Origin: an uncultured virus (IMG/VR IMGVR_UViG_3300025848_000037)
Taxonomy: Duplodnaviria > Heunggongvirae > Uroviricota > Caudoviricetes
Virus record (IMG/VR): IMGVR_UViG_3300025848_000037
DNA length: 20,000 nucleotides
Direction: 5' to 3' (one strand)
This document shows positions 1,880 through 19,293 of the stretch, in pieces; position 1 is the first letter of the stretch, and each line of letters starts with the position of its first letter. A program made the position numbers and the translations under genes. The notes under the pieces were generated by a model. That model had not been told where the DNA came from. It searched no databases and saw only the letters and a program-made list of their open reading frames with translations.

Positions 1880-1881
1880 TT

Positions 1882-2811
1882 TTAGGCCTCCAATTTCAGT
1901 TTTGCCACAGCATATTGTTCATCGGTCAACCCCAGCTTTTTGGCCAGAGTCCTCTGACTTTCGGTCAGTCGAACACGTTTTGACTGTGTCGTTCGTGTAG
2001 CCGGCGCAACCACCGTGCTTGCTTTTGTAGCCTTTGCAGGCTTTTCGTCGTCTTCCGTTTGGTCCTCAAACCTTTCTGGAAAACGTTTGCGCATCGTATT
2101 ATCAATGCGCCGGTAATATTCTTGCGAAGATACCACAACCCCTTCTTCCTTCAACTGTTCGTGAAGGGCCAGGGCCATGCCGGTCATCAACTTATCTTCG
2201 CCAAACCAGGGATTTTCCTTTTTCCATGCTTCTGCGCTTGGATCAGTTTTAATCCGCTGGACTTGTTGCGCCGGTTGTACTTCAAACTTTTCCTCTTGTA
2301 AAGGGGCCGGTTTGAAATTGGAAACTTTGTCGATCTTAATCGACATTTGATTAAGTTTCTTCTGGGCCTCCAGCACTTTCTCAGAATCGCCAGATTCATA
2401 GGCCTCACGGTATTCCCGCTCCGCCTGCTGCATTTCCATCTCCACCGCCTTTTTAGCGGTTTCAATGACGTTCTTTTGGCTGCTGTTAATCGTCGATTTG
2501 AGTTTGTTGTTTTCCTCAATCAACCGTTTGGCCAGAGCAACAGCTTCTGCCTGCTCACGCATGACAGATTCCTTTTCCCGGCGCTCGTCATGAGCCAGCT
2601 TCTTGAGCTGCAGGAGCTTCTTTTTGACTTTGCTGGAATAGTCCTCCAGCTCATCGTTATATAGCTCCTCTGCTACCTCCTTGGGAAGCGGCTTTTTATT
2701 GCGGTCTTCCTCCGGGGTATCGTCCTCGATTTCAATTTCGAGTTTGTCGTCGTCTTTCGTATCCTCGATTTCATCGGGGAACTTAAATTCTTCATCGCCA
2801 AATTTGGACAT
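1882..2811 (-). CDS. Probable capsid scaffolding protein
   Basis: Acidic N-terminus, long coiled coil, W...NPWFG motif, C-terminal LTESQRTLAKKLGLTDEQYA. Start set at ATG 2811 behind AAGGAGG. Confidence 0.7.
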   Translation of the reverse strand: MSKFGDEEFKFPDEIEDTKDDDKLEIEIEDDTPEEDRNKKPLPKEVAEELYNDELEDYSSKVKKKLLQLKKLAHDERREKESVMREQAEAVALAKRLIEENNKLKSTINSSQKNVIETAKKAVEMEMQQAEREYREAYESGDSEKVLEAQKKLNQMSIKIDKVSNFKPAPLQEEKFEVQPAQQVQRIKTDPSAEAWKKENPWFGEDKLMTGMALALHEQLKEEGVVVSSQEYYRRIDNTMRKRFPERFEDQTEDDEKPAKATKASTVVAPATRTTQSKRVRLTESQRTLAKKLGLTDEQYAVAKLKLEA

Positions 2812-2822
2812 GTGAACCTCCT

Positions 2823-3233
2823 TCACTTACGCCGGATGCCGCGAGGATCGTCCACAGTACCGTCAACCGTATCATCATTGATCATACGGAACTCACGGCC
2901 ATGGATAACCAGGCGCTGACCAGCATTGGGTCGAACAAGAACAAAATCACCCTCCTTGCACCACGGGCCACTGGGGAACCGCTTGGGATCCTTGTAGCAG
3001 TCCGGTCCCAGTGCAACCACGAACAAAACCGTGGCCAGGGTTTCTTCAATCATGATCGTTTCGTCGGCCTTCAACAGGCCTTGCTCAAACTCCTTATCCA
3101 CCTCGGGCAGGGCACACAAAATTTTGTAGCCAGCCGGTTTGGGGAGTTGTTTCCCTTTTTCTTCGGGAGTTGTGGAACTTGTTCCAATAATTACCGGATT
3201 GTCTGGATTAGTCGCCAGTAGGATCTCACTCAT
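2823..3233 (-). CDS. GroES/Cpn10-like co-chaperonin
   Basis: LPKPAGYKIL...VVALGPDCY...WCKEGDFVLV...IHGREFRMINDDTV matches the Cpn10 pattern. Start ATG 3233 overlaps the upstream gene end. Confidence 0.8.
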   Translation of the reverse strand: MSEILLATNPDNPVIIGTSSTTPEEKGKQLPKPAGYKILCALPEVDKEFEQGLLKADETIMIEETLATVLFVVALGPDCYKDPKRFPSGPWCKEGDFVLVRPNAGQRLVIHGREFRMINDDTVDGTVDDPRGIRRK

Positions 3234-3432
3234 CTTGGGTTTCAAGCCTTCGCTGTAGGTCTGTGATGTAGAGACGTGCAGTGAGCAGACCTTTAACCTC
3301 TCCGCACATCTTTTTGTACTCCGCAAAATCCTTGGCGTTATCGTCCGCCAATGCTTCTTGGAGTTGTTGAACCTTGCTGTCGATTTGCGACCTCAAATGT
3401 TCGAACGCTTTGTCAATGAATTGATCATTCAC
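3226..3432 (-). CDS. Small conserved helical protein after portal, 68 aa
   Basis: AKDFAEYKKMCGEVKGL motif; ATG/TGA overlap with portal stop. Confidence 0.75.
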   Translation of the reverse strand: MNDQFIDKAFEHLRSQIDSKVQQLQEALADDNAKDFAEYKKMCGEVKGLLTARLYITDLQRRLETQDE

Positions 3433-5888
3433 TGTTTGGCCTTTTCAGGTTTATTTTGGTTTGCCCGGATCTGGGCAGTTGTCTTGGCTACATCTACGCC
3501 CAGGCGCATGCGGTCAAGTTCTTTTTGAGCAGTGTGCTTTTCGCTGCTTTGCTCAGCTTGGGCACGAATACGCGCAAATTCAATCTCGCGCTGTGACTCG
3601 ATACGAGCCTGTTCCGTTTTGATTTGCGCCGACTTGGCCTGCGCATCAATCTGGATTTTTTGCTGCTTGAGCTGCAGCTCGCCTTCCTTGAGCTTGAGCT
3701 CCTGCTGCTGCATCTGGATGAGCGGATCCTGAGCCATCTGCTCGGCTTGCTGCTGCGCCGCAATAGCCTTGTTCTTGTTGAGCAACTGGCCCGATGCCTG
3801 GGCAATCAGCTTGGCCAACTCAGCCTCAATCTCCGGCGGCAGCTTGTCCTCCGGCGACGGCAACGTAACGCCCATCTGCTCTTCCATTTGCTTGCGGTAG
3901 TGGAAGCCCAGGTGCTCGGCAATGTGCGCCTGCAGGGCTGCGTTGATCGCGTTCACCTGGGGGTTTTGCGCAATCTGCTTGGCCATCAGCGGGTCTTGCA
4001 TAAACATCGTGTGAGCCGCGATGTGTGCATCGTGATCCTGGAAGATGAACGCCTTCATGGGCTTACCACGCAGTGCATTCATGTTCTCGGTAATCGGGTC
4101 CGTCGGCTGCTCGTCATCTTCCAGCGGCACCAGCTTCTGGGCATTCTTGATACCCAAAACATCCAGCATCTGGCGGTGCAGTTGGGGCAGGTCATAGATC
4201 TGCGGCGCCATCTGGGCCAGCTGGATCACCGCCTGGTACTGGACAACCTTCTGCGCCATCGTGGCCGCATTGGGGTCCGACACCGGGATCACATCGACCA
4301 TGTCGTAGTCGGAGCGCTTTGCCTTGCGGCCGCCCTGCTCGGGCTCGTAGCTGTACTCGTCCGGGGTGTAGTCGCGGATGATGTCGCGCAGAAGTTTCAG
4401 CTCTTGCTTGAACGAGTAATGGATCCGCGCCTGGACCGCGGACATCACCTTGAGTTGCCGCTCCAGCAGCGCCAGCGTCGTACCAACAGGGGAGTTGGCA
4501 GACATATCCGCCACCTTCATGTCAGCAGCAGACGCAAACCGGCGGCCTTCGTCAACGATCTTGTCCATCAGCCCCGCAAGAACCTGGCTCGGCTCTTTGT
4601 AGGGCAGCGCCATGATGTTGTCTTTGATCGTGCCGCTGGGAACGTCAACATCACGCCACTCCGCCGGGGCAATCGGGGTATCGTCACCCTTGACGCGCAG
4701 ACCACGGGTTTTGAAACCACCCGGCAGGTTGCTCAGCGACCCCGCATCAACCAATTGGCGCAGGATCGAGGTGCCGGCCTTGGCAAACGCCCCGATCAGG
4801 TGGATCAGGCCAAAGCAGTAAAAGCCAAAGCCCGGGACGTATCCATAGTGGACGTAGTGCTGGCGCTTGGTGTGCTTTTTGTCGCCCGGCTTCCAGTTTC
4901 GGCGAATAGCCAGGCACTTATTACTGCCCTTTTCAATCGTCACGATGTACGGCAGGGCAATGCCCGTCATTTCGCCGCTCTCGTCCTTGTGCTCGTACCC
5001 GGGCAGGTCCAGGTTAACGTTCATCTCCAGCAATTTGTACCGGTCATCGCTGGTAGCGCGGAAACCCATCTTCTCCGCAATCTTTTTCTCCACATCATCG
5101 AGTTCGTTGCTCGGCTCGCCCAGGTCAATATCGAGGTAGAACCCGGCAACCTGCAGTTTGCGCAGGTCGTTCTCGGTCTTCCTCATCACATGGGTCACGC
5201 GCTCGGCGGTTTCGATATCACTGGCCCCGTACGGAACCACAATATCGTCAGCCGGCACGTAAATCGACGTCTGGCGCTCAAGGTTGGGGTCGTAATAGAC
5301 CTTTTTGAACGCGTTACCCGCCAGCCCCAGACCCCAAACCATCCTCTCGTGCTCAGGACGGAACTCAGTCATCACGTCCGTGAGCTGGTAGTTCATGTCG
5401 TCCGCAACGTTGGTCGCGGCTTCGCGTTTTTCGGGAGTTTCTTTCCCAATAATCTGGGTTTTGACAGGCCCCGCAGCGGGGAACGTGGACATAACCGTCT
5501 CAGCCTGGAACTTAACCAGCGCTTCTGACAAAAGTGGGTGGTAAACCCCGCACGCGCCAGGCCAAGGATCCGTTCTTTCCTCGATTTTCAGGCCCAGCAG
5601 CTGCAAACCGTCCACATAGGTCTGCATCCAGTCCCGGCGAGACGAAACATCGTCTTCATAATCACTTACCAAATCACCAACGATGGTCGCAATCGCGCTG
5701 TCGTCCAGATATTCAGCCAAGTTGGCGTCGAAATCGTCTTCAACCCCACCGTCCAGGCTGATTTCCACACCATCCATCTCGATATTGACCTCTTCAGGAT
5801 CAACAATTTCGATCTCAATCTCTGGTTCTTCGCCCGTCGCCAAAGATTCCAAGCCCTCTGGCGCTTCGTATAGTGATTTATCGATCAT
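3429..5888 (-). CDS. Portal protein, P22-like, with C-terminal coiled-coil barrel
   Basis: 819 aa directly downstream of TerL; GNAFKKVYYDP and GFGFYCFGLIHL motifs; Q/A/K-rich C-terminal coiled coil. Confidence 0.85.
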   Translation of the reverse strand: MIDKSLYEAPEGLESLATGEEPEIEIEIVDPEEVNIEMDGVEISLDGGVEDDFDANLAEYLDDSAIATIVGDLVSDYEDDVSSRRDWMQTYVDGLQLLGLKIEERTDPWPGACGVYHPLLSEALVKFQAETVMSTFPAAGPVKTQIIGKETPEKREAATNVADDMNYQLTDVMTEFRPEHERMVWGLGLAGNAFKKVYYDPNLERQTSIYVPADDIVVPYGASDIETAERVTHVMRKTENDLRKLQVAGFYLDIDLGEPSNELDDVEKKIAEKMGFRATSDDRYKLLEMNVNLDLPGYEHKDESGEMTGIALPYIVTIEKGSNKCLAIRRNWKPGDKKHTKRQHYVHYGYVPGFGFYCFGLIHLIGAFAKAGTSILRQLVDAGSLSNLPGGFKTRGLRVKGDDTPIAPAEWRDVDVPSGTIKDNIMALPYKEPSQVLAGLMDKIVDEGRRFASAADMKVADMSANSPVGTTLALLERQLKVMSAVQARIHYSFKQELKLLRDIIRDYTPDEYSYEPEQGGRKAKRSDYDMVDVIPVSDPNAATMAQKVVQYQAVIQLAQMAPQIYDLPQLHRQMLDVLGIKNAQKLVPLEDDEQPTDPITENMNALRGKPMKAFIFQDHDAHIAAHTMFMQDPLMAKQIAQNPQVNAINAALQAHIAEHLGFHYRKQMEEQMGVTLPSPEDKLPPEIEAELAKLIAQASGQLLNKNKAIAAQQQAEQMAQDPLIQMQQQELKLKEGELQLKQQKIQIDAQAKSAQIKTEQARIESQREIEFARIRAQAEQSSEKHTAQKELDRMRLGVDVAKTTAQIRANQNKPEKAKQ

Positions 5889-5896
5889 GCTGGCCC

Positions 5897-7393
5897 TTAA
5901 TAATAGGAAACCCGACGTTTGAATGATACTGGCTCATCAGGCTCGTCAGTTTGAAGGCGGATAAACCCACCCTTTCGGAAACGAATCAGCGCTTGCGTCG
6001 TCGAGTCCACAAGGTCATCGTGATCTGAATACGGGAATGCCGCCATCTCTTCAATTAACTCGTCCGCCCACCTTGTTTCCGGCGCCCATACCTTGCCACT
6101 GGCAAACAAATCGGCCACAGAGTTAATACGGACCATCTTATCATTGCCCCTGCTGGGTGTAAATTCACTTACAGGGATACCCATCGCCCTCAGCTCATAG
6201 ATAAGTGGCGCCCCGGAAGCCTTCGCTTCCACGATAAACGCGTCCGGCTCCCACTCCTTATAGTGGTTAAACGCCTTCTCCTTCAACTCCGGGAACTCCA
6301 TTCGGCGCTTGAACGCATCGAGCAAAATAATGTGGGCGTCGTTTTCGTTCTCGTTCATGTAGAACACCCCCCACGTCGTACACGCCGAATAGTCCGCCCT
6401 CTCACTCTTCGTAAACGCCGTGTCCCAGCTCTGGATCACAAACTGACACTGGGGCGGCCTCTCCTGCTTCCACGCCTTCCACCACTCCCTCTTAATAATC
6501 GCGCCCTCTTCGGACGTCGGCTCCTGCTGGTACTGGGCGTTCCACTTGCTCACCGGCAGTTCAAGCTTCAGAGCTTCGAGCTCCTCCAGGCTCCAGAACT
6601 CCGGCCAAAGTGGCTTTCCACTCGGCAATATCGCAGGGAAGTTAATCACCTCCCAGTGCTCCCCATCCTTATCGATCATCGACTGCAACACCCGGCCCGT
6701 CAGGTCTTTCTTCGACCACCGGGTCATCACGATCACAATCGACCCACCCGGCTGCAGACGCTGCCGCGGGCCAGACGTGTACCACTCATACACCTGGTCA
6801 AACACCTCCGGGTTACTTTGCGCCAACTTGGCTTCCTGCTCGGAATGGGGGTCGTCAATGATGAGTAGATCCGCGCCCTTACCCGTCACCGTACCGCCCA
6901 CACCAATAGCGAAATACTCCCCGTTCCCGTTCGTCGCCCAGCGACCCGCCGCCTTGGAGTCAGCCCTCAAGCTCACATTCGGGAAGATCTCCCCGTACGG
7001 CTGGCTGTCCACCAAGTTCCGCACCTTCCGGCCAAAGCCCACCGCCAGTTCACTCGTGTTCGAGCACTGGATCACCTTCTTATTCGGGTACTTCCCCAAA
7101 AACCAGCTCGGCAGCATGAACGACGCAAACTCACTCTTCGTGTGCCGCGGCGGCATATTAATAATCAACCTCTTCAGCTTCCCCTGGGCAATCTCCTCAA
7201 ACTTCGCTGCCATCACTTTATGGTGCCGCCCGTCAATAAACCCAGGCCACATCGCACGGACAAACTTCCCAAACGACCCCTGCGCCTCCTCCCGGCGTTT
7301 GGCCATCCTCAACTCATGAAGATCCTCAAACACCTGCTCCTGCACATTCAACGGCAACTTCTCTATCGCCCGGGCAATTTCATCTACGTTCAC
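5897..7393 (-). CDS. terL: Terminase large subunit
   Basis: Walker A-like INMPPRHTKS, Walker B LLIIDDPH, coupling motif VMTRW, nuclease acidic motifs SWDTA and HDDLVD. Confidence 0.95.
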   Translation of the reverse strand: MNVDEIARAIEKLPLNVQEQVFEDLHELRMAKRREEAQGSFGKFVRAMWPGFIDGRHHKVMAAKFEEIAQGKLKRLIINMPPRHTKSEFASFMLPSWFLGKYPNKKVIQCSNTSELAVGFGRKVRNLVDSQPYGEIFPNVSLRADSKAAGRWATNGNGEYFAIGVGGTVTGKGADLLIIDDPHSEQEAKLAQSNPEVFDQVYEWYTSGPRQRLQPGGSIVIVMTRWSKKDLTGRVLQSMIDKDGEHWEVINFPAILPSGKPLWPEFWSLEELEALKLELPVSKWNAQYQQEPTSEEGAIIKREWWKAWKQERPPQCQFVIQSWDTAFTKSERADYSACTTWGVFYMNENENDAHIILLDAFKRRMEFPELKEKAFNHYKEWEPDAFIVEAKASGAPLIYELRAMGIPVSEFTPSRGNDKMVRINSVADLFASGKVWAPETRWADELIEEMAAFPYSDHDDLVDSTTQALIRFRKGGFIRLQTDEPDEPVSFKRRVSYY

Positions 7394-7656
7394 TCAATCC
7401 TCCGAAAATTTATATACACAGGCCGTATCGACCTCGCGCTCCCAGGCAACCTCTTACACACCCCCAAATCACACAGCTTCCTCATCACCCTATTCACATT
7501 CCCCCGCCCCCTATCCCCCGTCAACCTCATGATGTCATCCACCGACGGCCCATACCCAAACTTCTTCCACCACTCATCAATACACAAAAACACCACCTTC
7601 TGCTTCGGCGTCATAAGCCTCTCCATCCCACTCTCAACATCCCTTACTCGCTCCAT
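7390..7656 (-). CDS. Stand-alone LexA-type N-terminal winged-helix DNA-binding protein
   Basis: MTPKQKVVFLCIDEWWKKFGYGPSVDDIMRLTGDRGRGNVNRVMRKLCDLGVCKRLPGSARSIR aligns by eye with the LexA DBD (LTARQQEV...GMPPTRAEIA...LARKGVIE...SRGIR). No peptidase domain. Start could be 7656, 7626 or 7614. Confidence 0.75.
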   Translation of the reverse strand: MERVRDVESGMERLMTPKQKVVFLCIDEWWKKFGYGPSVDDIMRLTGDRGRGNVNRVMRKLCDLGVCKRLPGSARSIRPVYINFRRIE

Positions 7657-7913
7657 TCCCCATCCTCCCACGACCGATCCCACTCCCACACCACCACCGG
7701 AGTCCTCGGCCCCACATACGCCCCCTCCACATTGAAATCAATAAACTCCAACGCCTCCTCATCACTCATCCCATCCCTCTCCATCAACACCTTCACTATC
7801 CCCTCCCCCGAATACACCAACCTCTCCACCCTCCCATCATCCATCCACACACTAGCCGTCCCCAATATCGCATCGTCATACCCATCAAACCGAATCAGCC
7901 CCTCCATCTCCAT
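7644..7913 (-). CDS. Conserved phage hypothetical protein, 89 aa
   Basis: DGYDDAILG...EEALEFIDFNVEGAYVGPRTP; RBS AAGGAG. Confidence 0.8.
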   Translation of the reverse strand: MEMEGLIRFDGYDDAILGTASVWMDDGRVERLVYSGEGIVKVLMERDGMSDEEALEFIDFNVEGAYVGPRTPVVVWEWDRSWEDGEWSE

Positions 7914-7998
7914 CTCCTTTATCTGTACTTATCTTTGTAATTGATAAGTATGTTGCACAAATTTATTCCGCCAATTACTAACCCTAATTTTCTATAAA

Positions 7999-8015
7999 TG
8001 GAACAAGTTCCACTC
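7999..8015. promoter_or_regulatory. Second copy of the GTGGAACTTGTTCCA palindrome
   Basis: TGGAACAAGTTCCACTC in the AT-rich gap downstream of terS. Confidence 0.55.
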
Positions 8016-8039
8016 TCAGGATTGGATCAATTTTTATTT

Positions 8040-8783
8040 TTATACCCCCCCATCGGTTTTTTCTAGCGATTCTTTGAGTGGAATACTATGCGAAGGTGCG
8101 CCCCCCGTGGCCGGGCCGGAATGGGCGGGTGGGGGGGCCGTGGGGTCGGCTGGCTGGCCATCGTCGTGGGATGTGCCTGCATCTGTGCGTGCTTGGGCCA
8201 GCTCGGTGAGCAGGTCTAGCCCGGCGTCTGCCTCGACTACCTGTGCGTCCGTGACATCCTTGAGTGTCTCGAGGAGACGCGCCCGGATCTCCCCGCTGCG
8301 CTGGATGGTCGTGATCTCCTTGCGTTCGACGAAAGCCCCGACCTCGAACAGGTTGCCCAACAGCTTCAGGCAGGCCACGCGTTGGGCAGGCGGGAACTCG
8401 GGATCGAGGGAGTGCTGGACGAGTTGCTGGACGAGCAGGGACTTGAGCTGAGCAGGGGTTCGATGTTTCTCTGCCTCGATTGCCAGCTTGTAGGCCTCGA
8501 CCTCTTGCTGGATCCTTGCGTCGGCTGCGAGCTTGTACGGCTGACAGACGATTGTGGACGGAGCTGGTGTTCCCTCTCTACTGTCCCTGTATGCCTGAGC
8601 CTTCGTCTTCCCTAGTGCAAGCTGCCGGGCGAATTCCCTCTGTTTCGTCGTGAGCTGAGCCTTCTTCCCCGGGCCGGACGACAGTAGGTGTTCTACCGGG
8701 AACTGCGTGAGCCCCTCTGCGATCTGCTGCCGGGTCAGCTTCTGTGGTGTCTTCACCTTGCGTGCTGGAGTGCCTGTGTCCAT
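8040..8783 (-). CDS. Probable terminase small subunit
   Basis: LTTKQREFARQLALGKTKAQAYR HTH typical of TerS; CLKLLG motif; upstream of TerL. Confidence 0.7.
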   Translation of the reverse strand: MDTGTPARKVKTPQKLTRQQIAEGLTQFPVEHLLSSGPGKKAQLTTKQREFARQLALGKTKAQAYRDSREGTPAPSTIVCQPYKLAADARIQQEVEAYKLAIEAEKHRTPAQLKSLLVQQLVQHSLDPEFPPAQRVACLKLLGNLFEVGAFVERKEITTIQRSGEIRARLLETLKDVTDAQVVEADAGLDLLTELAQARTDAGTSHDDGQPADPTAPPPAHSGPATGGAPSHSIPLKESLEKTDGGV

Positions 8784-8819
8784 CGTGTCCTACTAGGTAC
8801 GGAGTGAGTATCGGGCCAG

Positions 8820-8847
8820 ATGATACCGCGGCCTTCACCCAGGTCAA
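8820..8847 (-). promoter_or_regulatory. Leftward sigma70-like promoter for the packaging operon
   Basis: Minus strand TTGACC-16 nt-TATCAT, about 37 nt upstream of the terS ATG. Confidence 0.55.
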
Positions 8848-8869
8848 CCGCGGCGTGCCATCCTGACCT

Positions 8870-8887
8870 AGTGGAACTTGTTCCACT
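8870..8887. promoter_or_regulatory. Palindromic operator-like site AGTGGAAC-TT-GTTCCACT
   Basis: Perfect 8-bp arms. The same 15-mer recurs at 7999-8013 (reverse) and 3172-3186. Confidence 0.6.
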
Positions 8888-8894
8888 CGACTTC

Positions 8895-8933
8895 AAAAAA
8901 AATGCTTGACGAGGTACTTGCAACCCCTACAAT
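8895..8933 (+). promoter_or_regulatory. Rightward sigma70 promoter for the small-gene cassette
   Basis: A-tract (8895-8902), TTGACG (8906-8911), 16 nt spacer, TACAAT (8928-8933). Confidence 0.75.
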
Positions 8934-8987
8934 ATCAGACATGGCAGCAGCCGCTGTCATGTGTCGCAACCTACTGGAGACCTACCC

Positions 8988-9158
8988 ATGAGTGACCAAT
9001 CCCTGAAGACGGCCTGCGTGCTGTCCGTCATGTTCGCTGTTCTGACTGTCGTCGTCGGACTGATCCTCGATGCTCTGTCGGTTGCGGACGCTGTCGTCTG
9101 CCTCACCTGCGTCGCTGTCCCCGCTGTCGCCCTGATCCTCGAAGGAGCACAAGCATGA
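8988..9158 (+). CDS. Small membrane protein, 56 aa, two predicted TM helices
   Basis: GGAGA RBS; two hydrophobic stretches; ATGA overlap with next gene. Confidence 0.7.
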   Translation: MSDQSLKTACVLSVMFAVLTVVVGLILDALSVADAVVCLTCVAVPAVALILEGAQA

Positions 9159-9394
9159 CCAAACTGAAAGCCCTCAAGACTGATCCAGTTGCTCTCAATG
9201 CCGCCCTGCGCCGGTTGCTGTCTCTGCTGGACACCACGGACGCCGAATTCCCGGACGCCTGCTGGCGCGTTGCATCCTCGACCGGCGTTGACTATGTCGC
9301 CCTAGCGGATGCGTACGACACTTACTGCGCCGCGCGCGACGATGTGACGCACGCTGACTGGTACGAGCGCGTGTCCCACGCCTGCGACCGCTGA
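9155..9394 (+). CDS. Hypothetical protein, 79 aa
   Basis: AAGGAG RBS; EFPDACWRVA...LADAYD. Confidence 0.75.
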   Translation: MTKLKALKTDPVALNAALRRLLSLLDTTDAEFPDACWRVASSTGVDYVALADAYDTYCAARDDVTHADWYERVSHACDR

Positions 9395-9465
9395 GAGTGC
9401 AGCCTGATGACCGGGGCCGCCCGGTCATTGGAGTGCAATCCCGCACGACTACGGAGAACATCATG
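9395..9465 (+). repeat. Structured intergenic element, copy 1
   Basis: CCTGATGACCGGG-GCCG-CCCGGTCATTGG, then GTGC-AATCCC-GCAC, then ACGGAGAACATCATG. Confidence 0.75.
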
Positions 9466-9711
9466 CCCGACTACTACCGACTCACGACGATGACCCACTA
9501 CGGCGCGATCACAGAGACTACCGAGATGCTGGTCACCGACGAGGATATGCTGGCCGCCGCGCAAGCAATGGACAGATCCGGCGGAGGGTTCGCGGAAGCA
9601 ATTGCGGCGGCATGGTTTCGCGCTGATTCTGGCAACCGCGAACGGCTGGCGGATGCCTTTGGTGACCTGTTCGGGCGCTTCGTCAAGCAGGCCTACGCCG
9701 ACAAGACTTGA
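9463..9711 (+). CDS. Hypothetical protein, 82 aa
   Basis: GGAG RBS; MDRSGGGFAEAIAAAWFRADSGNRERLADAFGDLF. Confidence 0.8.
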   Translation: MPDYYRLTTMTHYGAITETTEMLVTDEDMLAAAQAMDRSGGGFAEAIAAAWFRADSGNRERLADAFGDLFGRFVKQAYADKT

Positions 9712-9776
9712 TCCTGATGCCCCGCGTGCCGGGGCATTAGGATGGGGTTTTCCCATCGTCAACGGAGATCATCATG
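9703..9776 (+). repeat. Structured intergenic element, copy 2
   Basis: ATCCTGATGCCCCG-CGTGC-CGGGGCATTAGGAT, then GATGGG-GTTTT-CCCATC, then AACGGAGATCATCATG. Confidence 0.8.
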
Positions 9777-10028
9777 CGAATCACTTACCTACAGGATCCC
9801 GGTCATGGCTGGCTGGTCGTGCCTGCCGCCCTTGTCCGCAGCCTCGGCTGCCGCCCCTCTGACTACAGCTACCACGACCGCGCCGCTGATGTGGCGTACT
9901 TGGAGGAGGATTGCGACGCTGGGGCATTCATGCAGGCGCTGAAGGCTAGCGGTGTCGTGCCGCAGATCATCGACCACCACACCAACGATGACGCGTACTG
10001 CCGCAGCCTACCGCGTTGGAGGGGCTGA
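9774..10028 (+). CDS. Conserved hypothetical protein (DPGHGWL...YLEEDCD type), 84 aa
   Basis: Motifs DPGHGWL, SDYSY, YLEEDCD; good RBS. Confidence 0.85.
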   Translation: MRITYLQDPGHGWLVVPAALVRSLGCRPSDYSYHDRAADVAYLEEDCDAGAFMQALKASGVVPQIIDHHTNDDAYCRSLPRWRG

Positions 10029-10117
10029 TGACCACCAGACTCGCTGCCCTGATTGCTCAGGCCCGACTCTGGGCCATCCTCGCTGAAATGAAAGCCGCAC
10101 AAAGGAGCCGCAAATGA
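10028..10117 (+). CDS. Tiny ORF, 29 aa (MTTRLAALIAQARLWAILAEMKAAQRSRK)
   Basis: Manual translation; TGATG overlap upstream and ATGA overlap downstream. Confidence 0.5.
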   Translation: MTTRLAALIAQARLWAILAEMKAAQRSRK

Positions 10118-10281
10118 GACATCACGCCCAACACCCATTCGATCAAGAGATCCGCCGCCGCCTGTTCCAAGACCGCCGCGAGGCACGCGTGCAGGCCGCA
10201 TGGGAGTTCCTGCTTACCCTTGTCGTGTCCACAGCAATCGTCGGTGTCATCACGCTGATTGTCGTAACCCTCACGGAGTGA
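10114..10281 (+). CDS. Small protein with C-terminal TM helix, 55 aa
   Basis: Manual translation MRHHAQHPFDQEIRRR...WEFLLTLVVSTAIVGVITLIVVTLTE; AAGGAG RBS. Confidence 0.65.
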   Translation: MRHHAQHPFDQEIRRRLFQDRREARVQAAWEFLLTLVVSTAIVGVITLIVVTLTE

Positions 10282-10283
10282 CC

Positions 10284-10451
10284 ATGAATCTTTATAAATT
10301 TACCTGTTCTGTGTGGGTGCGGGGCGAAAGCCTTGAAGCTGCCCTGCAGGAGCTGCACGAGGAAGTTGACTACCACTTTGGCCTCGACAACAACCTGATT
10401 GCGCTGGAAAGCGACGAGGGTGTGTTGGCTGAAGAAGGAGAAAGCAAATGA
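10284..10451 (+). CDS. Acidic hypothetical protein, 55 aa
   Basis: GGAG RBS then MNLYKFTCSVWVRGES... Confidence 0.7.
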   Translation: MNLYKFTCSVWVRGESLEAALQELHEEVDYHFGLDNNLIALESDEGVLAEEGESK

Positions 10452-10663
10452 ACGCACCGATCATTAAAGACGGATGGGCACTAATCCACGAGCGCACCGG
10501 AAAGTTGGTCAGTGAGCGCGATGTGGTGCTGGACTTCAGGGGCGAGGCCGACACCATCATGGGAGGCAATCCCCCGCACAAACCCAGCTCAACGGGGCGT
10601 GTCTGGGTGGAGCGCGGCGAGTTCTTCCCTTCCGTTTTCAACCTTAAATGGGTACGCAACTAG
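10448..10663 (+). CDS. Conserved hypothetical protein, 71 aa
   Basis: DFRGE...GGNPPHKPSSTGRVWV...FFPSVFNLKW; AAGGAG RBS. Confidence 0.8.
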   Translation: MNAPIIKDGWALIHERTGKLVSERDVVLDFRGEADTIMGGNPPHKPSSTGRVWVERGEFFPSVFNLKWVRN

Positions 10664-10672
10664 GACGGAATC

Positions 10673-10743
10673 CACAACATCCCCTGTAGCCCCGCGTGCG
10701 AGGCTATGGGGGGGCGTTGTGCCCTCTAACGGAGATCAACATG
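10673..10743 (+). repeat. Structured intergenic element, copy 3
   Basis: CCCCTGTAGCC-CCGCGTGCGA-GGCTATGGGGG, then GGGC-GTTGT-GCCC, then AACGGAGATCAACATG. Confidence 0.75.
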
Positions 10744-10929
10744 GATATTCACAAGCTGGATTTTTGGCTGCTCGATGCGTACGCATTGGGCTACTACGAT
10801 GGACGCCACCACGGGAGCGAAGACACCCCCGAAGAGTACGACGATGACCGCCGCTACCTGTACAAGGTCGGCTACCAACGCGGCGTGACTGACTACTGCC
10901 ACGACAAACACCCGGAGACTCAATCATGA
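10741..10929 (+). CDS. Hypothetical protein, 62 aa, with two GYxxG motifs
   Basis: AYALGYYDG...YKVGYQRG; RBS GGAG. Confidence 0.75.
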   Translation: MDIHKLDFWLLDAYALGYYDGRHHGSEDTPEEYDDDRRYLYKVGYQRGVTDYCHDKHPETQS

Positions 10930-11126
10930 AACGACCTGAAAACATCCACGACGCACTTCGTCACCTGCACGATCTGACAATGGCTATCGCCAACGACATG
11001 AACAATTACATGGATAACCCACAAGACCACAAACCGGAGTACTTTGAGGCTGTCCATGCGGCAGCGCTTGATGCTCACCTGCTGGTCACATGGGTGAGGG
11101 ACAACCTAGCGGAAATGCAGAAATGA
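10926..11126 (+). CDS. Hypothetical helical protein, 66 aa
   Basis: GGAG RBS, ATGA overlaps at both ends. Confidence 0.7.
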   Translation: MKRPENIHDALRHLHDLTMAIANDMNNYMDNPQDHKPEYFEAVHAAALDAHLLVTWVRDNLAEMQK

Positions 11127-11803
11127 AATACACATTCGTCCGCAAGAGTGGCAACCGCAAAACCGGGCCAATCCCACAGACCTACAACTCGCGCTCGACC
11201 TGCCCTCCAAGCTGCGCCCACTATCGAACAAGCTGCTACGCTGAAGACTTCTACACCCGCATGGCATGGCACAAAGTAGACCGCACCGGGATGGATATCA
11301 CCGGGCTAGTGCGTGAGATAGCCCGGCTGCCAGACGGACAGCTTTGGCGCTACTCCGTCGCTGGTGACCTACCCGGCGCGGGGGAACTGGTTGACGCGTA
11401 CGAGCTAGGCCAAATCGTTTCCGCAAACCGAGGCAAACGAGGGTTCACCTACACCCACAAAAAATCCGCCGCCGCAATCAAGTGGGCGCGGCACGCAATC
11501 GAGTGGGGTTTTACTGTGAACCTATCCGCCGATGATGCAGGAGAGGCAGACCGCCTGCACCGCCACGGCCTGCCGATTGTCGTGACTGTGCCAATGGACA
11601 CCCCGCGCCAATCGTTCACCCCAGCAGGACACCCGATCATTGTCTGCCCCGCACAGACAACCGATCATGTGACTTGCGAAACCTGCGGCCTGTGTCAAAA
11701 CGCTACCCGCAGATCCATCGTCGGTTTCCGCGCCCACGGGTCAAAGGCACGCGTTGCCGACCAACGAGCACGCAAAGTTATCCCGATTCGGAGCACGCAA
11801 TGA
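11123..11803 (+). CDS. Cys-rich Gp88-like / radical-SAM-like Fe-S protein, 226 aa
   Basis: N-terminal CPPSCAHYRTSCYA (CX3CX6C), WRYSVAGDL, FTYTH, VNLSAD, and C-terminal CPAQ-X6-CETCGLC. Confidence 0.65.
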   Translation: MKYTFVRKSGNRKTGPIPQTYNSRSTCPPSCAHYRTSCYAEDFYTRMAWHKVDRTGMDITGLVREIARLPDGQLWRYSVAGDLPGAGELVDAYELGQIVSANRGKRGFTYTHKKSAAAIKWARHAIEWGFTVNLSADDAGEADRLHRHGLPIVVTVPMDTPRQSFTPAGHPIIVCPAQTTDHVTCETCGLCQNATRRSIVGFRAHGSKARVADQRARKVIPIRSTQ

Positions 11804-12111
11804 ACGCCGAGCAAATACTGAAACGATTGATTGCACCGCAGAACAGGCCTGCCGGGATGTATCTGCGTCTTTACCACGGACGCCCATCACCCAAACACGA
11901 AATGGAGGGCTGGGGGCCAGATGGCCCGGTTTTCGGGCCTCTGAAGTATTGCCACATCACCTACATGAGCACGATCAATATTTGTGGCATGGACGATGAG
12001 GATACCGGGCCAATGAGCGGGGATGATCCGATACATTTTGTTGACGATTTGATTTTTTACGATGGCTGGTACTACGGGGACTGGGCCTTTGAATATGAGG
12101 ATGGAAAATGA
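11800..12111 (+). CDS. Conserved hypothetical protein, 103 aa
   Basis: YLRLYHGR...GWGPDGPVFGPL...HITY...YDGWYYGDW; ATGA overlap. Confidence 0.75.
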   Translation: MNAEQILKRLIAPQNRPAGMYLRLYHGRPSPKHEMEGWGPDGPVFGPLKYCHITYMSTINICGMDDEDTGPMSGDDPIHFVDDLIFYDGWYYGDWAFEYEDGK

Positions 12112-12290
12112 CTGACTGCCAAATGCACACGAAAACCGATGGAAGCTGGTGGGAGCACGATGGGCAGGGCATCCCCCTTTGCCGCGTGTGCTCCAACTGC
12201 CGCGACGAAAAGCTACGCCGCTATCGGCCTGAGATTTTGGCCTACTACACACAGGCCGACATCGACGAGCAGATCGAGGAGGATTACTGA
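12108..12290 (+). CDS. Small Cys/His protein, 60 aa
   Basis: DGQGIPLCRVCSNC...YRPEIL; ATGA overlap. Confidence 0.75.
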   Translation: MTDCQMHTKTDGSWWEHDGQGIPLCRVCSNCRDEKLRRYRPEILAYYTQADIDEQIEEDY

Positions 12291-12291
12291 A

Positions 12292-12504
12292 ATGATGCTG
12301 GACACACCCGAACAGATCGCTGGAGCACGAATGCTTACCCTGTTTGCAGGCCTGAAGCTGGAGGTACTGGGGATGCGGAAATCAGGCCGCAGTTGCTACC
12401 AGATCGTTAAGCAGGAATTTGGACTGAAGGGCACGCGCCGACAAGTGCTCGACGCGTATCAGGAACTGCTGTACGAACGAGGGCTAAAGCAACGGCCTCA
12501 GTAA
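12292..12504 (+). CDS. Hypothetical protein, 70 aa
   Basis: MMLDTPEQI...GLKLEVLGM...VKQEFGLKG; GGAGG upstream. Confidence 0.7.
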   Translation: MMLDTPEQIAGARMLTLFAGLKLEVLGMRKSGRSCYQIVKQEFGLKGTRRQVLDAYQELLYERGLKQRPQ

Positions 12505-13278
12505 CGCCGCCGCCGCCTCTGTGCCGAGCCTAGCCTCGGCATCATTGAAATCCTCCCCTAGCTGGCCTAGCCAGATTCGGGAGGATACTTTTTTGGCGGC
12601 ACGCTGGCCTGCGCCGCTGGCATCATGGTCTGCCACCACCAACGGGTTCCGCAGCCGCTGGCCTATCTCGACCATGTTCTGGGCCGAGAAGCAGACATGG
12701 ATGCGATACCGCTGCCGGGCGTGTTTCAGCGCACGCCGCACCGACAGGCCGGTGGCGAAGCCTTCGACGAGGATGTCCTGGCCCTTGTTGTCGATCACGA
12801 GGCTAGCGCCCTTTGTCAGCTGGCCGGCCAGGAACCGCTTCGTGCCGTCCGCGGCTATGAGCTGGCAGCCAACTAATTTGTCGCCCACCCGCATCGGTAG
12901 CACGAGGCTACCCTCCCAGACATACCCTTCGAGTTCAGGGAATCCCTTCTTCGCTAGGTATGGGTGCGTGGCTTTCGGTGCCGAGTTGAGAATCCACGCC
13001 GCCCGATGTGCCGCACGCTCCTGCCTAGCACGACGCTCTTTGTCTGCCTTCTCGCGCCTGGCCTTGGCCTCGGGGTCTGGCCTGTAGGCTTCGTCGGACT
13101 TGTACGGGATGTGCTTGTCATGCACCGCGAAGTTGATGAGCGCACCCATCCTGCCATCGAAGATGTAGGCGCCGTTGGCCTTCTTCGGGTGGTCAATGGT
13201 GGGCACGCGCATCCAGCGGTCGAGCACGAGGCTGCGGATGATGAGTCCGTGCATCTCCGCAAACTGTTCAAAGGTCAC
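12484..13278 (-). CDS. TOPRIM-domain primase-like protein
   Basis: HPYLAKKG, LVLPM, QLI...GTKRFL, TOPRIM motifs LVEGFATG, VADHD, EDFND. Confidence 0.85.
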   Translation of the reverse strand: MTFEQFAEMHGLIIRSLVLDRWMRVPTIDHPKKANGAYIFDGRMGALINFAVHDKHIPYKSDEAYRPDPEAKARREKADKERRARQERAAHRAAWILNSAPKATHPYLAKKGFPELEGYVWEGSLVLPMRVGDKLVGCQLIAADGTKRFLAGQLTKGASLVIDNKGQDILVEGFATGLSVRRALKHARQRYRIHVCFSAQNMVEIGQRLRNPLVVADHDASGAGQRAAKKVSSRIWLGQLGEDFNDAEARLGTEAAAALLRPLL

Positions 13279-13472
13279 TTCGCGCTGGGCCTGTTGTTGT
13301 GACGCTCTTCCATCACTTTGATGGCGCCAATAACTTCACCAATCTGGGCCAGGGCGTAAAGAGCGCACTTGTTTGCATCTTCAAACCGGTTCTCAAGCAT
13401 GAATTTATGAAGATCTTTGAGCGCTGCGTCGGCCATCATGGCCGGGAAAGAGTAATCAACTAGTTTGGTCAT
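13275..13472 (-). CDS. Hypothetical protein, 65 aa
   Basis: Coupled ORF with overlapping start/stop codons. Confidence 0.7.
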   Translation of the reverse strand: MTKLVDYSFPAMMADAALKDLHKFMLENRFEDANKCALYALAQIGEVIGAIKVMEERHNNRPSAK

Positions 13473-13729
13473 TTTGTTTGCTTATATTTCTTGCGCCATG
13501 CCCGGACGGACTTGGGGTCTACGTTGTAGTAGTTGGCTACGTCTTGGATGGTTCCTTCTGCCATAGCCACTTCCCGCTGTTTATCTTCCTGCTCCTTCCT
13601 TTTGTCATCGTGGGTGTGGACAAGAACCTCTTCGGTTGTGAAGCGATGTAAATTGCCACACTCCCGAACACGCCTTGGCATCCGGGTCGTGACAACCCGG
13701 CTCCATGCGTTGCACGTAGGGCAGTTCAT
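13469..13729 (-). CDS. Zn-ribbon (NrdR N-terminal-like) plus C-terminal HTH protein
   Basis: MNCPTC...RRVRECGNLHRFTTEE, and TIQDVANYYNVDPKSVRAWRKK. Confidence 0.7.
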   Translation of the reverse strand: MNCPTCNAWSRVVTTRMPRRVRECGNLHRFTTEEVLVHTHDDKRKEQEDKQREVAMAEGTIQDVANYYNVDPKSVRAWRKKYKQTK

Positions 13730-17814: not shown

Positions 17815-19293
17815 TCATGCCGCCGCCCTGGATTTGGATTTCGCCCACGCAATGTTGCGTGACTGAATCCACCTAAATGTTTTTGTGCTGGTGGGAATGG
17901 TTGTTTGCTCCACCCCACGCGGGAACACGCCGTACATTTCCTTGTACTTGTGAGCAACCCATCCATCCTTGTAGCCGCGCATACGCGAGTAATAGAGCAG
18001 CTCCGAATAAAACTTCTGACGATCCTGCAGCGGATTGTTGGACTTGCCATCGAGCTCGTGCAGCTCTCCCGCCACGCTGGCCACGTTCTTCACCGGGCGC
18101 TGATACCCGCAAGAGAGGCAGACGTTGTCTTTGCCAATCCACAGCGCCGCGCACACTGGGCACTTGGATTCCTTCTTCTCCTTCTCCGTGGGCTCTTTCT
18201 TAGCCTTCTCGCCGTCTTTGGCTAACTCAGTGACGCCGTTATCGAAGAGATCGTCCCAGTCCCCGCGGAACCGCAGGTAGTTGCCCGAGTGGTCGAGCCA
18301 CACGCCGAACTGCTTGCCCTCGAAGGGGCGCATGATGCGACCCATCTGCTGGACGTGAGAGCTGAAGGATTTCGAGAACGGCCTGGCAGACACGCCAATC
18401 ATCACGTCAGGCACGTCAAACCCGCGGGTCAGGATATCGGTGGCGATGAGCCCATGGATTGAGCTGTCAGGCTTGGCAAACTCCTCGATGGTCTCGCGCT
18501 TGAACTCGTCGTCCTCTTTGTAGGAGATCGAGACAAAGTTATAGCCCTGCTCTTTGAACTGGCGCTCCAGGTCTTTGCCGTGCGCTACGCCTGCACAGAA
18601 CACAACCGTCTTCTTGGGCCTGCCAAAGATTCTGTTAGTCTGCTTGATCCACTCGGCGACGATGTCCCCGGTGATCTTCATGCTGCGCTCGCTGACCACG
18701 TCCTGGGACCATTCGCCGGCCACCTTCTTGGCCCCGGTCATGTTGATCTCTTTGGCGATGAACACCCGCAGCGGGGTCAGCCAGCCATCCTTGATCAGCT
18801 CACCCGTGGGCTTGGCCCCGACCACATGGGTGTAGACATCCCCCAGGCCTTTGGTGAACGGCGTGGCGGTCAGGCCGATCACTTTGATTGTGGGGTTGTC
18901 CTTGATCCACTTGGTGGTGCTGGCACGCTGGACGTGGCACTCGTCGATCATCAGCAGATCGATGTCCATGTCGTTCTGCCGGCGCTCCAGGGTCTGTGCG
19001 CTGCAGACCTGGATGTTCTCGTACGGGCGATAACGCCAGTGCCCAGACATCATCACCCCGTGCGGGATGTCGTACTTCGATAGCCGCAGGCTTGTCTGGT
19101 CCACCAGCACGATGCGATCCAGCACCATGGCGGCCTTCTTGTAGCCCTTGGCCACCTCGGCCATGATCGACATGGCCACCTCGGTCTTACCAAACCCCGT
19201 CGGGGCATATAACAGCTGGCAGCGATGTCCACTCTTGAATCCATCGCGCAGCTTCTCGACCACCTCTTGCTGGTGGGGTCTCAACGAGAGCAT
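17815..19293 (-). CDS. Superfamily 2 DExH-box helicase with C-terminal Zn ribbon
   Basis: LRPHQ Q-motif, APTGFGKT Walker A, DECH, GLTATP, TRGFDVP, QQMGRIMR, CPVC...CLSC. Confidence 0.92.
   Translation of the reverse strand: MLSLRPHQQEVVEKLRDGFKSGHRCQLLYAPTGFGKTEVAMSIMAEVAKGYKKAAMVLDRIVLVDQTSLRLSKYDIPHGVMMSGHWRYRPYENIQVCSAQTLERRQNDMDIDLLMIDECHVQRASTTKWIKDNPTIKVIGLTATPFTKGLGDVYTHVVGAKPTGELIKDGWLTPLRVFIAKEINMTGAKKVAGEWSQDVVSERSMKITGDIVAEWIKQTNRIFGRPKKTVVFCAGVAHGKDLERQFKEQGYNFVSISYKEDDEFKRETIEEFAKPDSSIHGLIATDILTRGFDVPDVMIGVSARPFSKSFSSHVQQMGRIMRPFEGKQFGVWLDHSGNYLRFRGDWDDLFDNGVTELAKDGEKAKKEPTEKEKKESKCPVCAALWIGKDNVCLSCGYQRPVKNVASVAGELHELDGKSNNPLQDRQKFYSELLYYSRMRGYKDGWVAHKYKEMYGVFPRGVEQTTIPTSTKTFRWIQSRNIAWAKSKSRAAA

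Follow-up and report, generated by a model that had tools for sequence, protein, structure and literature searches.

Three paralogous modules occupy the sole long gaps of an operon of 13 small ORFs in the window (the whole 20,000-nt stretch analysed here, DNA of an uncultured freshwater phage and part of a 36.6-kb record estimated to be 57% complete), and we read them as copies of one intercistronic mRNA module that serves as processing or stability punctuation and as a homology patch for gene exchange (probability about 0.5). That they act at the RNA level as structured connectors is very probable, and punctuation by processing or stabilisation of any kind is slightly better than an even bet; cleavage by RNase III specifically, which modelled folds suggest, is less likely than not. 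Compensatory and wobble changes, among copies and among strains, preserve the stem. The original prediction of a family of sense-strand RNA hairpins that act in cis and are joined to ribosome-binding sites was upheld by the folds, the strand bias of the G.U pairs and the stem-keeping changes.

Position and sequence of the modules

The promoter of the operon (Table 1) was the only promoter-like site on the + strand of 7800-13500, none being found inside the three modules in the same scan, and a diverged strain contig keeps TTGACA in its place (loose end at 8901). The putative transcript, whose start was placed from the -10 box, would begin with the leader hairpin, followed by CGCAACCTACTGGAG and the ATG at 8988. 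This leader region (8906-8990: promoter, stem-loop and SD) is a promoter-bearing cousin of the three modules. Eight of the nine non-module junctions in the operon overlap or have a spacer of at most 2 nt, the modules being the only long spacers (62-77 nt) among the 12 junctions.

Eleven of the 13 ORFs have no homologue in 40 related loci, the two that do encoding an 84-aa protein (9774-10028) and a DUF7227 protein (11090/11123-11803); no relatives of the proteins of 9463-9711 and 10741-10929 were found in IMG/VR. The record also has genes for an Erf-like annealing protein, for a PD-(D/E)XK exonuclease and for a RuvC-like resolvase. A T7-like RNA polymerase (PF00940) had no match in this record of an estimated 57% completeness, but the control genomes gave none either, so that the negative carries little weight. 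RNA-library contigs cover 9470-9771 and 10687-11049, a presence that falls short of proof of transcription.

All three elements lie where they had been placed, each between a stop codon (TGA 9392-9394, TGA 9709-9711 and TAG 10661-10663 for copies 1, 2 and 3) and the next ATG. CCTG and ACGGAGA-n-CA-n-CATG, described as shared, are invariant in the alignments of the three copies (mean column identity 77%), and the stems ATGACC/GGTCAT, ATGCCC/GGGCAT and TAGCC/GGCTA, like the second-hairpin arms GTGC/GCAC, GATGGG/CCCATC and GGGC/GCCC, are all present. The base of the hairpin touches the upstream stop codon or sits just 3' of it: as originally noted, the lower stem of copies 1 and 2 abuts or takes in the stop (the hairpin of copy 2 includes it), and in copy 3 the stop is 9 nt before the hairpin. 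On the other side, the 3' side of the hairpin is 19-22 nt 5' of the conserved ACGGAGAnCAnCATG start region (SD and ATG). The hairpin-to-ATG distance is constant across modules and the stop-to-hairpin distance is variable; the module is anchored on the downstream start.

A covariance model built from the three copies scored 78.6, 77.9 and 71.4 bits on copies 1, 2 and 3 and 15.5 bits on the next best match in the window, and found no further match in the rest of the record. Furthermore, two of the three perfect hairpins of at least 8 bp in the whole record are copies 1 and 2.

Table 1. Coordinates of the operon, its leader and the three modules (positions in the window).
Feature	Coordinates	Strand	Details
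Sigma70-type promoter of the small-gene operon	8906-8933	+	TTGACG-16-TACAAT, A-run upstream; 10/12 matches
Leader hairpin at the predicted transcript 5' end	8939-8962	+	10 pairs, -14.5 kcal/mol, z -4.49; - strand -10.0
Operon of 13 small ORFs	8988-12504	+	four blocks: 8988-9394, 9463-9711, 9774-10663, 10741-12504
Module 1	9393-9465	+	core stem 9404-9431, loop GCCG; optional small hairpin 9433-9446; SD GGAG 9453-9456; ATG 9463
Long hairpin 1	9393-9443	+	-29.2 kcal/mol, z -4.59; 19 pairs, 2 G.U
Module 2	9703-9776	+	core 9711-9743, loop CGTGC; upstream stop 9709-9711 inside hairpin; SD 9764-9767; ATG 9774
Long hairpin 2	9703-9751	+	-32.9 kcal/mol, z -6.54; 21 pairs (4 G.U) and one G.G
Module 3	10673-10743	+	core 10680-10713 with C.A mismatch, loop CGTG; SD 10731-10734; ATG 10741
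Long hairpin 3	10673-10721	+	-29.9 kcal/mol, z -4.15; 20 pairs, 3 G.U

Folding and covariation of the stems

The long hairpins, proposed as alternative folds of all three copies, are their minimum-free-energy folds, and shuffles never folded as stably (0/200 for each). Their layout is the same: 12-14 bp of upper stem are separated by a mismatch or a small internal loop from 6-7 bp of lower stem, the irregularity lying 12-15 pairs from the loop in each of the three. The argument that G-T pairs favour the transcript as the folded form holds, with nine G.U pairs on the + strand in the three hairpins; the - strand is less stable by 2.0-10.4 kcal/mol (in 4/4 hairpins when the leader hairpin is counted). 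When wide flanks are included, the minimum free energies of the two strands are nearly equal, the asymmetry being confined to the hairpin segments themselves.

Among the copies, two-sided changes occur at four of the 16 model pairs, a count reached by 14 of 500 shuffles; slid controls were lower. Because the alignment used for pair counts sets the 3' arm of copy 3 and the second hairpin of copy 2 one column out of register, its figure of 79% paired is an underestimate. In each copy's own register, four of the 11 shared main-stem positions change on both sides (A-U/C-G, G-C/C-G, A-U/U-A and U-A/A-U). With the main stem fixed, the lower-stem extension was matched by fractions of 0.35, 0.11 and 0.015 of flank shuffles in copies 1-3 (Fisher p 0.02), and the second hairpin by 0.019, 0.072 and 0.118 (Fisher p 0.008), both p values being generous because the copies are paralogues; taken singly, copies 1 and 2 have lower stems that do not surpass shuffled flanks.

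Strain variants were taken from contigs of freshwater runs, each variant resting on single contigs; uncovered stretches of runs were not scored as absence and low-identity joints were disregarded. Freshwater runs containing part of the stretch made up 24 rows from 19 studies. In copy 2, A9739G converts U-A to U.G, a 1-nt loop deletion at 9729 yields the loop of copy 3, and the lower-stem variants G9705A and T9708C convert G.U to Watson-Crick pairs. In copy 3, whose 5' flank variants have 30 visible letters, one contig carries 10677 A>G together with 10717 T>C, replacing A-U by G-C in the lower stem; moreover, positions 10684, 10685 and 10686 vary among strain contigs with pairing kept.

Homologues and gene exchange

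A check against Rfam 15 gave no match on the elements; the sole match at E <=1 in the window was IMES-2 at 1980-2116 (18.9 bits against a gathering score of 54.7). The integron attC site was tried and rejected: the stems have CCTG.../...YWKGG at their bases and lack a GTTRRRY core (RYYYAAC/GTTRRRY expected). None of 50,697 phage records matched 8900-11200 in a nucleotide search. Scanning IMG/VR for CCTG-gap-ACGGAGAnCAnCATG returned at least 120 matches, those listed being generic hairpin-plus-RBS regions: 100 of these loci (L040-L139) reached at best 33.3 bits against model R1 and mostly 14-20 bits, about what the start block alone yields. Two loci, L082 (19.2 bits) and L147 (outside the set of 100), have an architecture that is similar by eye only. 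With a tighter pattern, metagenomes of soils and of other habitats gave at least 119 matches, none of those listed being a close homologue. For the copy 2/3 core plus start block, the scan of genome contigs gave 0 matches and that of IMG/VR one chance match, beside a tRNA-like region.

The expectation of homologues in related phages was borne out in part: only near-identical strains yielded sequence homologues, whereas more distant relatives have analogous modules that cannot be aligned. These analogous modules contain hairpins of 6-7 bp with UNCG loops, or no hairpin: four relatives (L161, L162, L171 and L174) carry UACG, UUCG or CUCG loops, C-G closed, in the equivalent position. In L019 a 12-bp hairpin precedes a 5-bp one. 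Upstream of most homologues of the 84-aa protein there is no hairpin (L160, 68% identical, has none; L161 has one). Since the hairpins of relatives are short or absent, the role shared across the phage group may be simpler than RNase III processing.

The suggestion of cassette shuffling agrees with the strain data, in which the gene after module 2 differs, and with the related phages; downstream genes do vary between relatives, at module 2 and at analogous modules. In two runs, contigs that match as far as the end of module 2 carry a different gene beyond it (switching at 9771 and 9777), which begins exactly at the start codon in both; the ORF replacing 9774-10028 is translated as starting MPNWC, and no ORF with that start was found in the record or related loci. 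Between L162 and L171, which are 88.7% identical up to the ATG of the analogous module, the gene that follows is replaced, and for L171 and L174 it is the 37-nt module alone that reaches 97% identity. Gene-start breakpoints are not special to modules, because the strain breakpoint at 10454 is a gene start without a module and the right-hand edge of the L162/L171 replacement is a plain RBS. As unrelated genes are separated by the same ~70 nt, the module would also offer homology for gene replacement, which the phage's own Erf-type annealing protein may perform.

Proposed function, rival explanations and known systems

In the reading that we prefer, the hairpin would punctuate the polycistronic transcript: host RNase III would most likely cut at the irregularity in the manner of the T7 early sites, so that the upstream block keeps the upper stem as a stabilising 3' cap and the downstream block gains a defined leader; if uncut, the hairpin would serve at the same place as an insulator or as a barrier to exonucleases. 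Of the RNase III option as first proposed, the geometry stands, being laid out as in the predicted T7 intergenic hairpins, whereas cleavage itself is a prediction only. The GC-rich stems could also carry RNase III antideterminant pairs (PMC3867540). A more elaborate version, which we regard as unlikely, is a portable "cut-and-cap" unit, the long hairpin being an RNase III substrate whose single cut caps both new ends: one cut at the irregularity would leave the 12-14 bp upper stem to cap the 3' end of the upstream block, and the freed 3' strand of the lower stem would snap into the second hairpin at the new 5' end, protecting the downstream block with the SD left open. It would account for both mutually exclusive folds being somewhat above chance. 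If it is true, a gene inserted by Erf-type recombination would arrive with a processing site, a 5' cap and a start region.

The nearest rival is a hairpin that is never cut and acts passively, blocking 3' exonucleases, keeping the upstream coding sequence off the downstream SD and giving the four blocks different levels. The short UNCG-loop hairpins of relatives in the same place, the 12-bp and 5-bp pair of L019, the anchoring on the downstream start and the leader's own 5' hairpin would all suit it; however, a short hairpin would then suffice, leaving unexplained both the ~20 bp with an irregularity at a similar distance from the loop in all three copies and the lower-stem covariation in a strain, and we hold this rather doubtful. 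Attenuation of transcription, in which a U-less stem-loop would reduce read-through between successive blocks, as has been reported for the stem-loops of PeSLs (promoter-early stem-loops), is improbable. The module hairpins are very stable, and a PeSL stem-loop placed before lacZ reduced expression as much as rrnB T1 (PMC2839356), but no U-tract follows any copy, so that none of the three has the GC-rich hairpin plus U-run of an intrinsic (Rho-independent) terminator; there are 0 terminator-like sites on the + strand of 7800-13500, relatives have canonical hairpin-plus-U-run terminators elsewhere, and an RNA-library contig runs through module 2 (a weak point).

Two-state folding survives in the sense that both folds can be drawn, each modestly above shuffles, but the long hairpin dominates at equilibrium (expected pairs within the second-hairpin region <=0.04), and therefore the two states are unbalanced; support is weak both for the small second hairpin and for a two-state switch. 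In a translation-coupled switch, a ribosome finishing the upstream gene would melt the lower stem, the second hairpin would form and the downstream SD would be exposed, to which the stop codons of copies 1 and 2 lend themselves. Against it stand the stop of copy 3 ahead of the hairpin, the low stability of the second hairpin (-3.3 to -5.2 kcal/mol), the natural compensatory change, which backs the long form only, and the modelled SD accessibility, which changed inconsistently when the 5' flank was blocked (0.27 to 0.21, 0.44 to 0.50 and 0.21 to 0.33); the switch is quite improbable. A function primarily at the DNA level, in which the modules would be cruciform or recombination sites for exchanging cassettes and their RNA fold a by-product, would match the gene replacement at module edges and the recombination genes of the record, but is very improbable given the G.U pairs and wobble-preserving variants that favour sense RNA, the poorer - strand in 4/4 hairpins and the breakpoints at module-free gene starts; no integrase or attC-type core sites were found, with no tyrosine recombinase among 41 ORFs scanned in a record estimated at 57% completeness. 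Antitermination like that of HK022 put, by an RNA acting processively on RNA polymerase, had been suggested by two adjacent stem-loops, which can indeed be drawn, but is scarcely credible: the second stem-loop is weak, Rfam gave no match, no terminator is predicted in the operon (7800-13500, + strand) for it to act on, and the element occurs three times, at 460-1800 nt from the promoter (distances to the predicted start: ~460, 770 and 1740 nt).

Most unknown phage genes, anti-defence genes among them, come and go in accessory-gene regions. A promoter-less processing or stabilising module marking swap points would help to delimit gene blocks in uncultured phages, would explain immediate expression of newly arrived genes and would be a compact natural part for operon building; here three copies form a defined set on which this idea can be tested, guided by natural variants.

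The T7 early RNase III signals (R0.3, R0.5, R1, R1.1 and R1.3) lie in intergenic regions. Folding the five T7 early intergenic regions gave predicted hairpins that share their geometry with the modules (between 0.4 and 0.5: 9 bp, loop, ~12 bp, 3' end 17 nt before the ATG). According to PMC3867540, the T7 early precursor carries five RNase III signals, an ideal RNase III substrate is 22 bp, and internal loops lead to single cuts after which stabilising 3' ends remain. Like the modules, the T7 signals are paralogous intercistronic hairpins of a host-polymerase early operon (here on the evidence of the promoter), with predicted folds of ~20 bp made of upper stem, irregularity and lower stem, the base at the upstream stop and the hairpin ending about 17-35 nt before the next ATG. 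Two marks of a T7-type signal, the intercistronic place and an irregular hairpin that spans about two helical turns and is interrupted by an internal loop, are found in the modules at the level of prediction; site-specific cleavage and permissive proximal and distal box pairs are further marks of such a signal. Unlike the T7 signals, the modules lack sequence similarity to them, are much more GC-rich, number only three and are fused to a fixed SD block, with cleavage predicted only.

Tuerk et al. reportedly described in 1988 intercistronic C(UUCG)G hairpins in phage T4 mRNAs. These resemble the modules in being stable and lying between cistrons, and in L161, L162, L171 and L174 hairpins with UACG, UUCG or CUCG loops stand in the equivalent position. 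The modules differ in having GCCG, CGUGC and CGUG loops, stems two to three times longer and a conserved start region to which they are fused.

Finally, the PeSLs of T4-type phages, as described in PMC2839356 and PMC4122927, likewise consist of an upstream stop, a stem-loop with G-T pairs, an SD and a start codon, and lie in an ORFan-rich variable region where gene replacements between relatives are bounded by the module. Of these traits, the stem-loop with its stop and SD/start edges was found here, as were the variable region and the module-bounded replacement, though breakpoints also fall at module-free gene starts. A sigma70-like promoter (-35, -10, AT-rich upstream) in each module, terminator activity of the stem-loop and mini-circle formation are further marks of a PeSL. 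In contrast, the three internal modules have no sigma70 promoter, the full set of promoter, stem-loop and SD being confined to the operon leader region, and there are 3-4 copies in an unrelated, 37-kb type of phage against about 50 for PeSLs. The connector is genuine yet of a not unprecedented kind: it is a promoter-less cousin of the T4 PeSLs.

Three hairpin modules in one operon

The virus record (linear, 36.6 kb, 20 kb of it in the window; completeness estimate 57%) is recurrent in freshwater metagenomes, and its closest named phage, DSL-LC05, is a freshwater isolate (37.6 kb) of like layout with a 65% identical DUF7227 protein. The module-bearing operon is ORFan-rich: homologues were found for just two of its 13 ORFs among 40 related loci examined. 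Its 12 junctions comprise eight overlaps or spacers of at most 2 nt, one 27-nt spacer and three long gaps (68, 62 and 77 nt), the only ones in the operon, each filled by a module. The two divergent promoters were the sole good sigma70-type matches across 7800-13500, a scan that found no internal promoter among the modules. A 16-18 bp palindrome, TGGAAC-WW-GTTCCA, occurs at 3171-3188, 7997-8014 and 8870-8887 (six strand matches in the window vs 0.01 expected); one copy lies between the divergent promoters, with ~20 nt separating it from the downstream -35 box of the operon promoter, and the palindrome probably serves as the operator of a phage regulator. Compared with record G000, the window has 41 differing positions, of which the first 20 in the list are grouped in 6406-6577 and 19391-19490.

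Sequence and alignments bore out three related elements where the original prediction had placed them. A covariance model trained on all three copies and run on the window and the rest of the record scored copies 1, 2 and 3 at 78.6, 77.9 and 71.4 bits; the runner-up in the window (15.5 bits) was the antisense of copy 2, and the remaining 16.7 kb gave no match. A search of Rfam gave no match to the elements. Only three perfect hairpins of at least 8 bp exist in the whole record, copies 1 and 2 being two of them. The MFE fold of every element was a single long hairpin rather than two hairpins, with 19, 21 and 20 predicted pairs in copies 1, 2 and 3: an upper part of 12-14 bp, then a 2x2 loop, G.G mismatch or 1x2 loop, and a lower part of 6-7 bp. 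With the upper stem fixed, copy 3 alone had a lower stem better than that of shuffled flanks (fractions 0.35, 0.11 and 0.015 for copies 1, 2 and 3). Of the two states proposed earlier, the long alternative hairpin and the small second hairpin both exist, the latter with modest gain over shuffles (fractions 0.019, 0.072 and 0.118), but the long form is the outright winner of the equilibrium ensemble. Folding of the transcript, as predicted from G-T pairs on the plus strand, agreed with nine G.U pairs in total and with minus-strand versions less stable by 2.0-10.4 kcal/mol; the leader hairpin likewise folded worse on the minus strand. Because this asymmetry was gone with wider flanks, it is a property of the hairpins and not of the region.

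Positions of the modules, their genomic setting and analogous features in related loci
Feature	Locus	Position	Strand	Details
Copy 1 hairpin	window	9393-9443	+	MFE -29.2 kcal/mol, z -4.59
Copy 2 hairpin	window	9703-9751	+	MFE -32.9 kcal/mol, z -6.54
Copy 3 hairpin	window	10673-10721	+	MFE -29.9 kcal/mol, z -4.15
Leader hairpin	window	8939-8962	+	10 bp at predicted transcript start, z -4.49; then SD, ATG 8988
Portal, large terminase and neighbours	window	1430-8783	-	
sigma70-type promoter	window	8820-8847	-	divergent from 8906-8933
sigma70-type promoter of operon	window	8906-8933	+	TTGACG-16-TACAAT, 10/12 matches
Operon of 13 small ORFs	window	8988-12504	+	between the two minus-strand gene groups
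Toprim primase	window	12484-13278	-	replication gene
Helicase	window	17815-19293	-	replication gene
Erf-like ssDNA annealing protein	L180 (rest of record)	9053-9748		
PD-(D/E)XK exonuclease	L180	10357-11265		
RuvC-like resolvase	L180	11380-12000		
Intercistronic hairpins, C(UNCG)G-type tetraloop then CAACCTGGAG-n-ATG	L162; L171; L174; L161	3310, 3798; 2909, 3398; 3181, 3634; 3966		
Hairpin-less connector GTAACCCGTAACC..AAAGGA..ATG	L182 (DSL-LC05)	5020-5053, 5189-5220, 5738-5770		with stop codons and RBS, ahead of small genes
TTGAC..TATAGT promoter + hairpin + RBS	L177; L175	3361, 4334, 4579, 5084; 3383, 4738		ahead of small genes

Selection on the long hairpin and its link to the start codon

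Both-sided changes among the copies affected 4/16 pairs in the model-fitted alignment, where copy 3 is off register by one column; 14/500 shuffles matched this count, and all slid controls were lower. Read in their own registers, the main stems share 11 positions, four of them changed on both sides, so that stems differing yet staying paired, as first noted, were recovered; two other positions show a U.G to U-A switch and a C.A mismatch (copy 3).

Strain variants came from contigs of two freshwater sequencing runs, X10 and X15 (an RNA library). In the diverged X10 strain and an X15 contig, copy 2 carries i) A9739G, turning U-A into U.G; ii) a single-base loop deletion yielding the loop of copy 3; and iii) G9705A and T9708C, which turn lower-stem wobbles into Watson-Crick pairs and are both synonymous for the upstream ORF. 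In copy 3, one X15 contig carries T10717C, and the 30 letters that can be read from its 5' part, which was left unaligned, fit 10657-10686 gap-free: its 10677 A>G, at the partner of 10717, turns A-U into G-C, changes at 10684, 10685 and 10686 retain pairing, and those at 10673 and 10682 break it. The 10677/10717 variant, seen in one contig, is the best single evidence and suggests that the long form is selected.

The upstream stop overlaps the hairpin base in copy 1 and falls within the lower stem of copy 2, as had been anticipated for these two copies; in copy 3 it precedes the hairpin by 9 nt. The distance from hairpin base to ATG is 19, 22 and 19 nt. As stop distance varies while ATG distance is near-constant, the module belongs to the downstream start. 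Moreover, given the leader hairpin with its SD and ATG, the first block opens with a promoter-bearing version of the module layout. A ~20-bp sense-strand hairpin is under selection, keeps a set distance to a conserved start region, and is placed between translationally coupled gene blocks of one operon, where strains differ in gene content.

Analogous modules and gene exchange

Sequence homologues came to light only in near-identical strains, and pattern scans of IMG/VR, metagenomes and genomes were at chance level among the matches listed. The suggested search of other phages succeeded for such strains. More distant relatives carry analogous modules that do not align with these, and modules of this sort are common among phages that have genes in common with the present one. 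The DUF7227 gene of L019 is preceded by two hairpins, of 12 bp and 5 bp, and an RBS (20.9 bits, E 0.005); in L161 a hairpin with a UACG loop and an RBS stand ahead of the homologue of the 84-aa gene, the position of copy 2; and the arrangement stop, GGGGCC-(UACG/UUCG/CUCG)-GGCCCC, CAACCTGGAG-n-ATG is present twice in each of L162, L171 and L174. The hairpin-less connector is repeated 3-4 times in DSL-LC05 and several IMG/VR relatives (L014, L015, L031 and L034), preceding 3-4 small genes. Near-identical leaders (at least two) occurred in 14/61 loci at an identity threshold so strict that the three copies of the window themselves fall below it. Ahead of the DSL-LC05 small-gene operon, L182 4470-5010 holds many copies of CCCAGTGGGT(CA), which look like iterons or operators.

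Downstream genes do vary between relatives, a check proposed at the outset. An X15 contig matched 9470-9771 with two differences, followed by 147 nt of unlike sequence, and an X10 contig matched 9655-9777, followed by 119 nt of other sequence; past module 2 both enter the same alternative gene, starting at the module's ATG. Likewise, identity between L162 and L171 is 88.7% as far as the ATG that follows an analogous module; the two then differ for 165 vs 565 nt, a gene being replaced exactly at that ATG. Between L171 and L174, a module of 37 nt is 97% identical amid unalignable flanks. One X10 contig diverges at 10454, 6 nt past the ATG of the gene 10448-10663, where the junction is an ATGA overlap and module-free; therefore gene replacement is not confined to modules. 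This breakpoint and the right-hand boundary of the L162/L171 replacement, a plain RBS, count against a special exchange role of the modules. The Erf-like protein, exonuclease and resolvase make up a recombination set of the phage, and this set could use short repeats. L180 74-7411 is a giant ORF that runs off the end of the contig and codes for 2445 aa or more, with AAA_34 and Helicase_C_4 (Strawberry-notch-type helicase domains) and LPD38, which marks a large polyvalent protein.

Mechanism and known systems

The hairpin would punctuate the polycistronic mRNA, and from the predicted folds RNase III-type processing is the favoured form of punctuation, because every copy is long enough for roughly two turns of helix and has its irregularity 12-15 pairs away from the loop, and because this layout is that of the hairpins predicted in the five intergenic regions of the T7 early genes and of the RNase III substrates reviewed in PMC3867540. 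Nearly as likely is a passive barrier or insulator hairpin, a better fit to the short hairpins of relatives.

Other readings fell away. No U-run follows any copy and the operon plus strand has 0 terminator-like sites, which excludes an intrinsic terminator; canonical terminators are present in relatives. For the translation-coupled switch offered originally, modelling a ribosome on the upstream stop shifted SD accessibility in no consistent direction. The HK022 put-like antiterminator, also among the initial options, was discarded since the defining features of put fail, and those of an attC-like site are likewise lacking.

The module set is a small, fairly clean example of a promoter-less hairpin + RBS connector, with useful natural variants. 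Under RNase III-type processing the module would work like a T7 processing signal, its cleavage being a prediction by analogy. It evolves like the PeSL of T4-type phages, as described in PMC2839356 and PMC4122927, but differs in having no promoter and for that reason falls outside PeSL; the repeated modules of L175 and L177, which are not T4-like phages, show the PeSL layout in full.
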